From: a plasmid
DNA length: 64,000 nucleotides
Reading direction: 5' to 3' (one strand)
NCBI RefSeq assembly: GCF_054482525.1
Contig: NZ_JBTHVG010000003.1
Shown piece by piece: positions 28,417 through 28,737 of this stretch. The notes under the pieces were generated by a model that saw only the letters and a program-made list of their open reading frames with translations, searched no databases and was not told the DNA's origin. Each line of letters begins with the position of its first letter. Positions within the stretch are counted from its first letter, which is position 1. A program made the position numbers and the translations under genes.

Positions 28417-28737
28417 TCAGTTAGTCACATTACGAATAACCCGGCTTACTTTCGCATGTGCGTTCCCCTGCATGTTAAAGTAAAGCCCTCCGGGCAGACT
28501 CGTCGCCCACTTAACGCCTCGCTCAGCCATACGCTTCGGTGTTTCCAGCCAACCACGAGGAATATTGCCCGGAACGTTACCGATAACCCGTCAAATGCAT
28601 GCTGCTACCCGGATGCCGCCGGGAATATCGCATTTGGATTCAACAATATGCATGACCTCAGATAAAGCACCATGCCGCTGGACATGATCGCCAATGTGCA
28701 ACTCGATAGGAGAAGCCATTTCTGAATCTGACTTCAT
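28417..28737 (-). pseudogene. ORF interrupted by a single in-frame TGA (possible pseudogene or readthrough gene)
   Basis: Manual translation: 48 codons from ATG at 28737, TGA at 28591-28593 followed by C, then 57 more sense codons in the same frame to stop at 28417-28419. Confidence 0.3.

Follow-up and report, generated by a model that had tools for sequence, protein, structure and literature searches.

An open reading frame (ORF) on the minus strand of an IncHI2 plasmid sequence is interrupted by a single in-frame TGA codon at positions 28593-28591 of the 64,000-nucleotide stretch analysed here, hereafter called the window. We conclude that this locus is, with high probability, an inherited nonsense allele of the ordinary kind in a small accessory IncHI2 plasmid gene, probably a pseudogene, from which at most a passive leak at the UGA codon would yield full-length protein. 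The stop codon is real, inherited and fixed in the IncHI2 plasmid lineage to which the window belongs. Comparison with R478-like IncHI2 plasmids, in which the same gene is uninterrupted, and with more distant homologs indicates that the TGA is derived, and that it arose by one C-to-G transversion at position 28592 on the sense strand that changed the serine codon TCA to TGA. Loss of function, the neutrality of that loss and the level of leak are inferred.

A 106-codon gene interrupted by one in-frame stop codon

Translation of the region 28417-28737 (minus strand) yields 48 sense codons (MKSDSEM...RVAACI), the TGA, and then 57 in-frame codons (RVIGNV...RNVTN) before the frame closes at another TGA (28419-28417). 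The base immediately 3' of the premature stop is C (28590). In the ORF list, the same region is represented by a 48-amino-acid ORF (28591..28737, minus strand), a 37-amino-acid internal ORF (28417..28530, minus strand) and a 101-amino-acid ORF on the opposite strand (28360..28665, plus strand). RefSeq calls the 48-codon piece hypothetical protein WP_001426334.1 and gives it no pseudogene flag.

Both halves of the interrupted frame align along their whole length with homologs of about 100 amino acids that carry no interruption, and the interrupted-ORF pattern therefore exceeds what is expected by chance. A first-pass annotation of this DNA, made from the sequence alone, had proposed a single gene broken by one in-frame TGA and transcribed in the same direction as its neighbours. 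The first proposal proved exact given these alignments, and the second is borne out by the position of all neighbouring genes on the minus strand, including a methyltransferase gene (29018-30268) and an ORF of 108 amino acids (27849-28175); the whole array likewise points one way in the annotated twin plasmid pSTM6-275. The features of the locus are as follows.

28744..28750, minus strand: Shine-Dalgarno (SD)-like AAGGTGG, recognized by reading the sequence, 6 nucleotides 5' of the ATG (28737) and identical in the R478-like lineage.
28594..28737, minus strand: 5' remnant, codons 1-48 of the ancestral 106-codon gene, aligning with residues 1-48 of full-length homologs.
28591..28593, minus strand: premature TGA, in which the derived base is the sense-strand G at 28592 and the ancestral codon is TCA (Ser49), as polarised by homologs.
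28420..28590, minus strand: 3' remnant, codons 50-106, still open behind the stop and encoding the conserved C-terminal half (IPR.W.ETP, RG, LP.GLY.N.QGNAHA).
28417..28419, minus strand: original TGA stop of the full-length gene, coinciding with the stop of the coding sequence (CDS) of the 106-amino-acid protein WP_000834113.1.
28375..28401, minus strand: hairpin followed by GUCGUUUUCC, with a fold of -11.6 kcal/mol (z = -1.71), kept in both IncHI2 lineages as judged by alignment.
28360..28665, plus strand: shadow ORF of 101 codons with a GTG start, open only since the sense TGA reads as TCA on the plus strand.

The 5' remnant (codons 1-48) is the sole normally translated part of the gene. The hairpin at 28375..28401 is possibly a weak intrinsic terminator 3' of the full-length ORF, although this assignment is tentative because the consensus terminator scan missed it. 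The same scan for consensus promoters and terminators was uninformative in general, as it found no promoter and its sole terminator-like site was intragenic.

The premature stop codon is derived

Homologs were sought among 5.8 billion protein clusters and by a profile search of 1.84 billion representatives. The gene family is small, comprising 22 representatives, and its full-length members are about 100 amino acids long. All 13 distant full-length homologs (55-74% identity) are uninterrupted, carry Ser (Ala in one instance) at the site of the stop within the motif AAC-I-S-R, and continue for approximately 50 further conserved residues. Furthermore, 15 of the 29 invariant alignment columns lie after codon 49. 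At the DNA level, the ortholog from the IncHI1B outgroup (WP_022652122.1, 74% protein identity) is located directly downstream of the same orphan DNA methyltransferase gene and has TCG (Ser) at codon 49. The presence of Ser or Ala at this site in homologs, together with the TCG codon in IncHI1B, argues that TGA is the derived state.

The first-pass annotation had named homologs that end with the first 48 codons as grounds against its reading. Outside this lineage, none of the homologs ends at codon 48, so the reading as a single interrupted gene stands. Some metagenomic homologs (P0010, of 152 amino acids, P0012, of 174 amino acids, P0037 and P0038) carry N-terminal extensions of 50-75 residues. 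The extension of P0010 matches phrog_31703 (E = 6e-8, function unknown), and the domain thus also occurs fused with other small phage modules.

Two alleles in two IncHI2 lineages

The 601 bases surrounding the locus recur at 100% identity in many large conjugative IncHI2 plasmids from E. coli and Salmonella, among them pSTM6-275 and pTB-nb4, and a DNA search at a threshold of at least 99% identity returned 589 plasmid records and 244 E. coli-genome records. A second group of plasmids (n = 394), matching at approximately 92.5% at the DNA level, comprises R478-like IncHI2 plasmids whose hosts are mostly Enterobacter, Klebsiella and Citrobacter. In this group, the gene is annotated as one uninterrupted 321-nucleotide CDS encoding 106 amino acids (WP_000834113.1), with the same start and stop positions as in the window. 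The R478-like gene, exemplified by that of p17277A_477, resides at the same locus after the orphan DNA methyltransferase gene and is 96% identical in nucleotide sequence over its length, with the start codon, SD sequence, final stop and downstream hairpin all as in the window. The window allele differs from WP_000834113.1 by TGA in place of TCA at codon 49 and by 8 amino-acid replacements. Direct alignment with an R478-like plasmid reveals no insertion or deletion across the gene, and the two versions of codon 49 are one base apart.

Searches with the intact protein (tblastn) separate the same two groups. In the 90-95% identity band there are 588 plasmid records, and among the matches listed all are at 91.5% (97/106, window type), whereas 392 records match at 99% or more (intact type); the full-coverage total is 588 + 394 = 982 records. 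Two records in the "95-99%" DNA band were considered as intermediates and rejected, as the single record listed (H30) aligns only in part, over 10% of the query, and the tblastn counts leave no room for them. Exact look-ups among approximately 15 billion proteins covered window-type alleles kept open by Ser, Trp, Cys, Arg, Gly or Leu in place of the stop, and none of these was found. The 48-amino-acid stub and the intact R478-type protein are each encoded on at least 1000 contigs. A haplotype-specific metagenome scan, using window-type markers and permitting any base at the mutated site, recovered 2 contigs, both of which carry TGA; the same pattern had no match in species-representative genomes.

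A sequencing error, which the first-pass annotation had listed among its explanations, or an assembly error is excluded, because the identical sequence with its TGA recurs in plasmid and genome assemblies that are independent of one another and number in the hundreds, as well as in the 2 metagenome contigs. That annotation had also offered a recent nonsense mutation. The change is indeed a nonsense mutation, derived by one base, but, being fixed in approximately 588 sequenced plasmids, it is not especially recent.

The hosts of the two alleles also differ among the plasmids listed. The TGA allele is found almost entirely in E. coli and Salmonella, often of animal origin, and the intact allele mostly in Enterobacter, Klebsiella and Citrobacter, often of hospital origin. 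This skew may reflect simple hitch-hiking on two IncHI2 backbones.

The overlapping plus-strand ORF

We considered whether the 101-codon ORF on the plus strand (28360-28665), which is open in the window, is itself a real gene in this lineage. The equivalent plus-strand frame of the R478-like lineage is closed by a TGA at exactly the mirror position of codon 49, such that its longest open stretch is 83 codons compared with 107 in the window. TCA is the reverse complement of TGA, and a single C-to-G change therefore shuts the sense frame while freeing the antisense frame of its stop. Given the mirror stop in the R478-like lineage, the 101-codon ORF is a by-product of the nonsense mutation. In addition, the cross-lineage conservation pattern and all protein homologs fit the minus-strand frame, and the orientation of this ORF opposes that of the one-directional array in which it lies. 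A plus-strand gene is thus very unlikely, and the ORF is an antisense shadow rather than a conserved gene, as the first-pass annotation had suspected.

Predicted structure of the intact protein

An AlphaFold2 model of the full-length protein, built from a 14-sequence alignment, is a confidently predicted single beta-barrel domain (pLDDT 91.6, pTM 0.82). The model comprises strands at residues 3-8, 18-21, 24-35 and 42-51, helices at 67-72 and 76-80, and strands at 86-91 and 97-103. Codon 49 resides inside the strand formed by residues 42-51, and the 48-amino-acid product is predicted to lack both helices and the last two strands. According to the model, truncation removes conserved or structurally essential sequence.

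The predicted model superposes on domain I of EF-P, eIF5A and EfpL, which is a KOW-like SH3 barrel. Sequence homology to EF-P was considered and rejected, with an hhalign probability of 0.3%, no Pfam hit and identities of 12-16%. A Foldseek search of the PDB gave no match at E <= 0.001, a sequence search of the PDB likewise gave none, and Pfam, NCBIfam, PHROG and PADLOC contain no family for the core domain. Unlike EF-P, the intact protein stands alone at approximately 100 amino acids, is encoded on plasmids and phages, and is no translation factor.

These predictions bear on the possibility that the 48-residue N-terminal fragment is a new functional micro-protein whose truncation was selected. 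The SD sequence and ATG are intact, and the 48-amino-acid ORF is annotated by NCBI and is as widespread as noted above. However, the fragment is predicted to end within strand 4 of a single-domain barrel, and the fold match requires 64-73 residues. Moreover, codons 1-48 have acquired 4 replacements on the branch leading to the window, some at conserved positions (T5S, V8A), and rare variants of the 48-amino-acid protein alter nearly invariant residues (V19A, A45T). The independent disruptions of this gene in other plasmids, described below, also occur at different positions. We therefore regard a selected micro-protein as improbable.

Readthrough and recoding of the UGA codon

Programmed readthrough was among the explanations given by the first-pass annotation, which had noted the C following the stop. 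The TGA is present only in one near-clonal lineage, and all other homologs have a sense codon at this position. The C at the +4 position opens the invariant Arg50 codon (CGG) and was present before the mutation. Poole and co-workers are said to have ranked UGA-C, in the EMBO J in 1995, as the weakest termination signal. A scan of 28300-28900 against 4227 Rfam families (E <= 10) gave no match near the stop and only a chance miRNA hit (15.8 bits), and the fold of the 71 nucleotides from the stop is not unusual relative to shuffled sequences (z = -0.39), with no SECIS or other stimulatory structure. A recoding RNA element is thus ruled out by the Rfam scan and the unremarkable downstream fold. 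With an unconserved stop, an inherited +4 C and no RNA element, programmed readthrough finds no support in the sequence.

Nor is the UGA likely to serve as a selenocysteine codon. Such a reading would account for the in-frame UGA, but there is neither an Rfam match (E up to 10) nor a significant hairpin 3' of it, homologs have Ser or Ala and never Cys at the site, and the change is a derived single-base event. We consider the chance of selenocysteine insertion to be negligible. Restart within the frame was also rejected as a means of rescue, as the first canonical start is the ATG of codon 70 (28530), which has no SD sequence and would yield a product of 37 amino acids lacking most of the fold.

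Passive leak may still occur. In E. coli K-12, termination is least accurate at TGA, which is mainly read as Trp, with premature TGAs giving from undetectable to few-percent amounts of product; the +4 effects reported in that study concern G (less accurate termination) and T (more accurate termination), not C (PMC11126739). The release factor RF2 of K-12 is a reduced-function variant, whereas the E. coli B form of RF2 is the better terminator at UGA, and the +4 base modulates termination (PMC5373646). The window shares with passive UGA leak in E. coli a UGA inside a translated ORF that may be read by near-cognate Trp-tRNA. It differs from that system in bearing no sign of selection for leak, since the sense codons supplied its context, it lacks a stimulatory element and its stop is unconserved.

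Sequence constraint and independent disruptions

Between the window and the R478-like lineage, 8 of the differences in the gene are non-synonymous and 5 are synonymous (pN/pS 0.49), compared with pN/pS values of 0.00-0.26 for six neighbouring genes. When polarised with IncHI1B, the nonsense change and all six polarisable replacements, of which 4 precede and 2 follow the stop, fall on the window branch and 0 on the R478 branch. Two further replacements are ambiguous, and their residues, G83 and M89, are absent from all homologs. Although the counts are small, this pattern would be compatible with near-neutral evolution of the whole gene on the window branch. Variation within the lineage is very low, and the single-nucleotide polymorphisms of two 99.8% records are intergenic (28800, 28891) and uninformative on selection. 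The downstream neighbour (27849-28175, minus strand; WP_000556022.1, 108 amino acids, unannotated) has 4 synonymous and 0 non-synonymous differences between the IncHI2 lineages, which indicates strong constraint on that gene.

The gene has been disrupted independently elsewhere. In pPSV it carries a frameshift after approximately codon 59 (L005:3001-3318) and is annotated as a normal protein of 105 amino acids. R478-type alleles include three different frameshifts (P0004, P0008 and P0017) and a nonsense mutation at codon 90 (P0025). These independent disruptions in other plasmids suggest that the gene is often dispensable.

Several points weigh against reading the window allele as an ordinary inherited one that is most likely a pseudogene. 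The polarisation of the stop relies on one outgroup DNA sequence plus protein outgroups, and the non-synonymous excess over neighbouring genes is not significant (Fisher p = 0.07, small counts). The 57 codons downstream of the stop have acquired no second stop and no insertion or deletion. Approximately 80% of neutral histories with 8 substitutions in the 3' half would likewise show no second stop, however, and this lack consequently weighs neither way. The TGA lineage is also very successful, with plasmids numbering in the hundreds, and the allele may therefore be beneficial or keep a residual function via leak. Finally, as the leakiest stop in E. coli K-12, UGA permits up to a few percent of full-length product from premature TGAs (PMC11126739).

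An alternative is that the window carries an attenuated functional allele, in which passive readthrough with Trp at position 49 gives a low dose of full-length protein that was selected in IncHI2 plasmids adapted to E. coli and Salmonella. The error-prone nature of UGA and its decoding mostly as Trp (PMC11126739), the open 3' half and the abundance of the carrier lineage all agree with this proposal. However, the stop is not conserved beyond the clonal lineage, the +4 C belongs to the invariant Arg50 codon and is older than the mutation, and stimulatory RNA is absent. Position 49 is almost always Ser and lies in a predicted beta-strand, where Trp may not be tolerated. Replacements have accumulated in both halves of the gene and only on the window branch, and the open 3' half is expected by chance. 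Strong UGA leak is, furthermore, largely a trait of the weak RF2 of K-12, with the RF2 of E. coli B terminating better (PMC5373646). Selection for an attenuated allele is accordingly unlikely in our estimation, if marginally less so than selection for the micro-protein considered above. A more specific form of the proposal, in which a roughly 100-fold cut in the dose of an EF-P-domain-I-like protein (a trickle of the S49W form through Trp-tRNA at UGA-C) was selected in E. coli and Salmonella IncHI2 plasmids, is about as improbable as the micro-protein. Selection of this kind could follow, for instance, from a cost that the full dose imposes on these hosts.

We therefore favour an ordinary inherited nonsense allele. 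The ancestor of the window's IncHI2 lineage underwent one C-to-G transversion that changed Ser49 (TCA) to TGA, and the change passed to all sequenced descendants. Ribosomes would initiate at the intact SD sequence and ATG, terminate at codon 49 and release a 48-residue fragment that is missing half of the barrel and is probably non-functional. Reading of the UGA by near-cognate Trp-tRNA could produce traces of full-length S49W protein, as at any enterobacterial UGA, and such traces would be incidental and unprogrammed.

Genomic context

Members of the gene family reside on mobile elements, in long arrays of small unannotated genes that all point one way. Examples include IncHI2 and IncHI1B plasmids, in which the gene follows the orphan methyltransferase gene, a Xenorhabdus contig, in which it lies beside a DndB-like gene, and a phage that carries terminase genes of the Sf6 type and portal genes of the P22 type. 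Such surroundings would suit a gene with an accessory or establishment role. Directly after the gene in IncHI1B plasmids comes a gene pair encoding an Xre/ParS antitoxin and a RES toxin (L004:3386-4287 and L005:3387-4288), which is absent from this position in IncHI2. The conserved unit is the methyltransferase gene plus the small gene.

The region of the window from approximately 23000 to 32000 (minus strand) is a one-directional array of small hypothetical genes that includes the orphan DNA methyltransferase gene, genes for a 794-amino-acid PAPS-reductase-family protein and an HNH protein, and DUF6012, DUF957 and DUF3085 genes, with a hok toxin gene further on. This array resembles plasmid early or anti-defence regions.

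Implications

As an ordinary inherited nonsense mutation, this finding matters little for biology in general. For annotation, it means that the 48-codon stub present in hundreds of plasmids, currently called a normal hypothetical protein, should be regarded as what is left of the 5' part of a 106-codon gene that has been disrupted. The base at 28592 provides a clean marker that distinguishes the IncHI2 lineage associated with E. coli and Salmonella from the R478-like lineage. The intact family, a small group of uncharacterised plasmid and phage proteins with a confidently predicted EF-P-domain-I-like barrel, may merit a study of its own.
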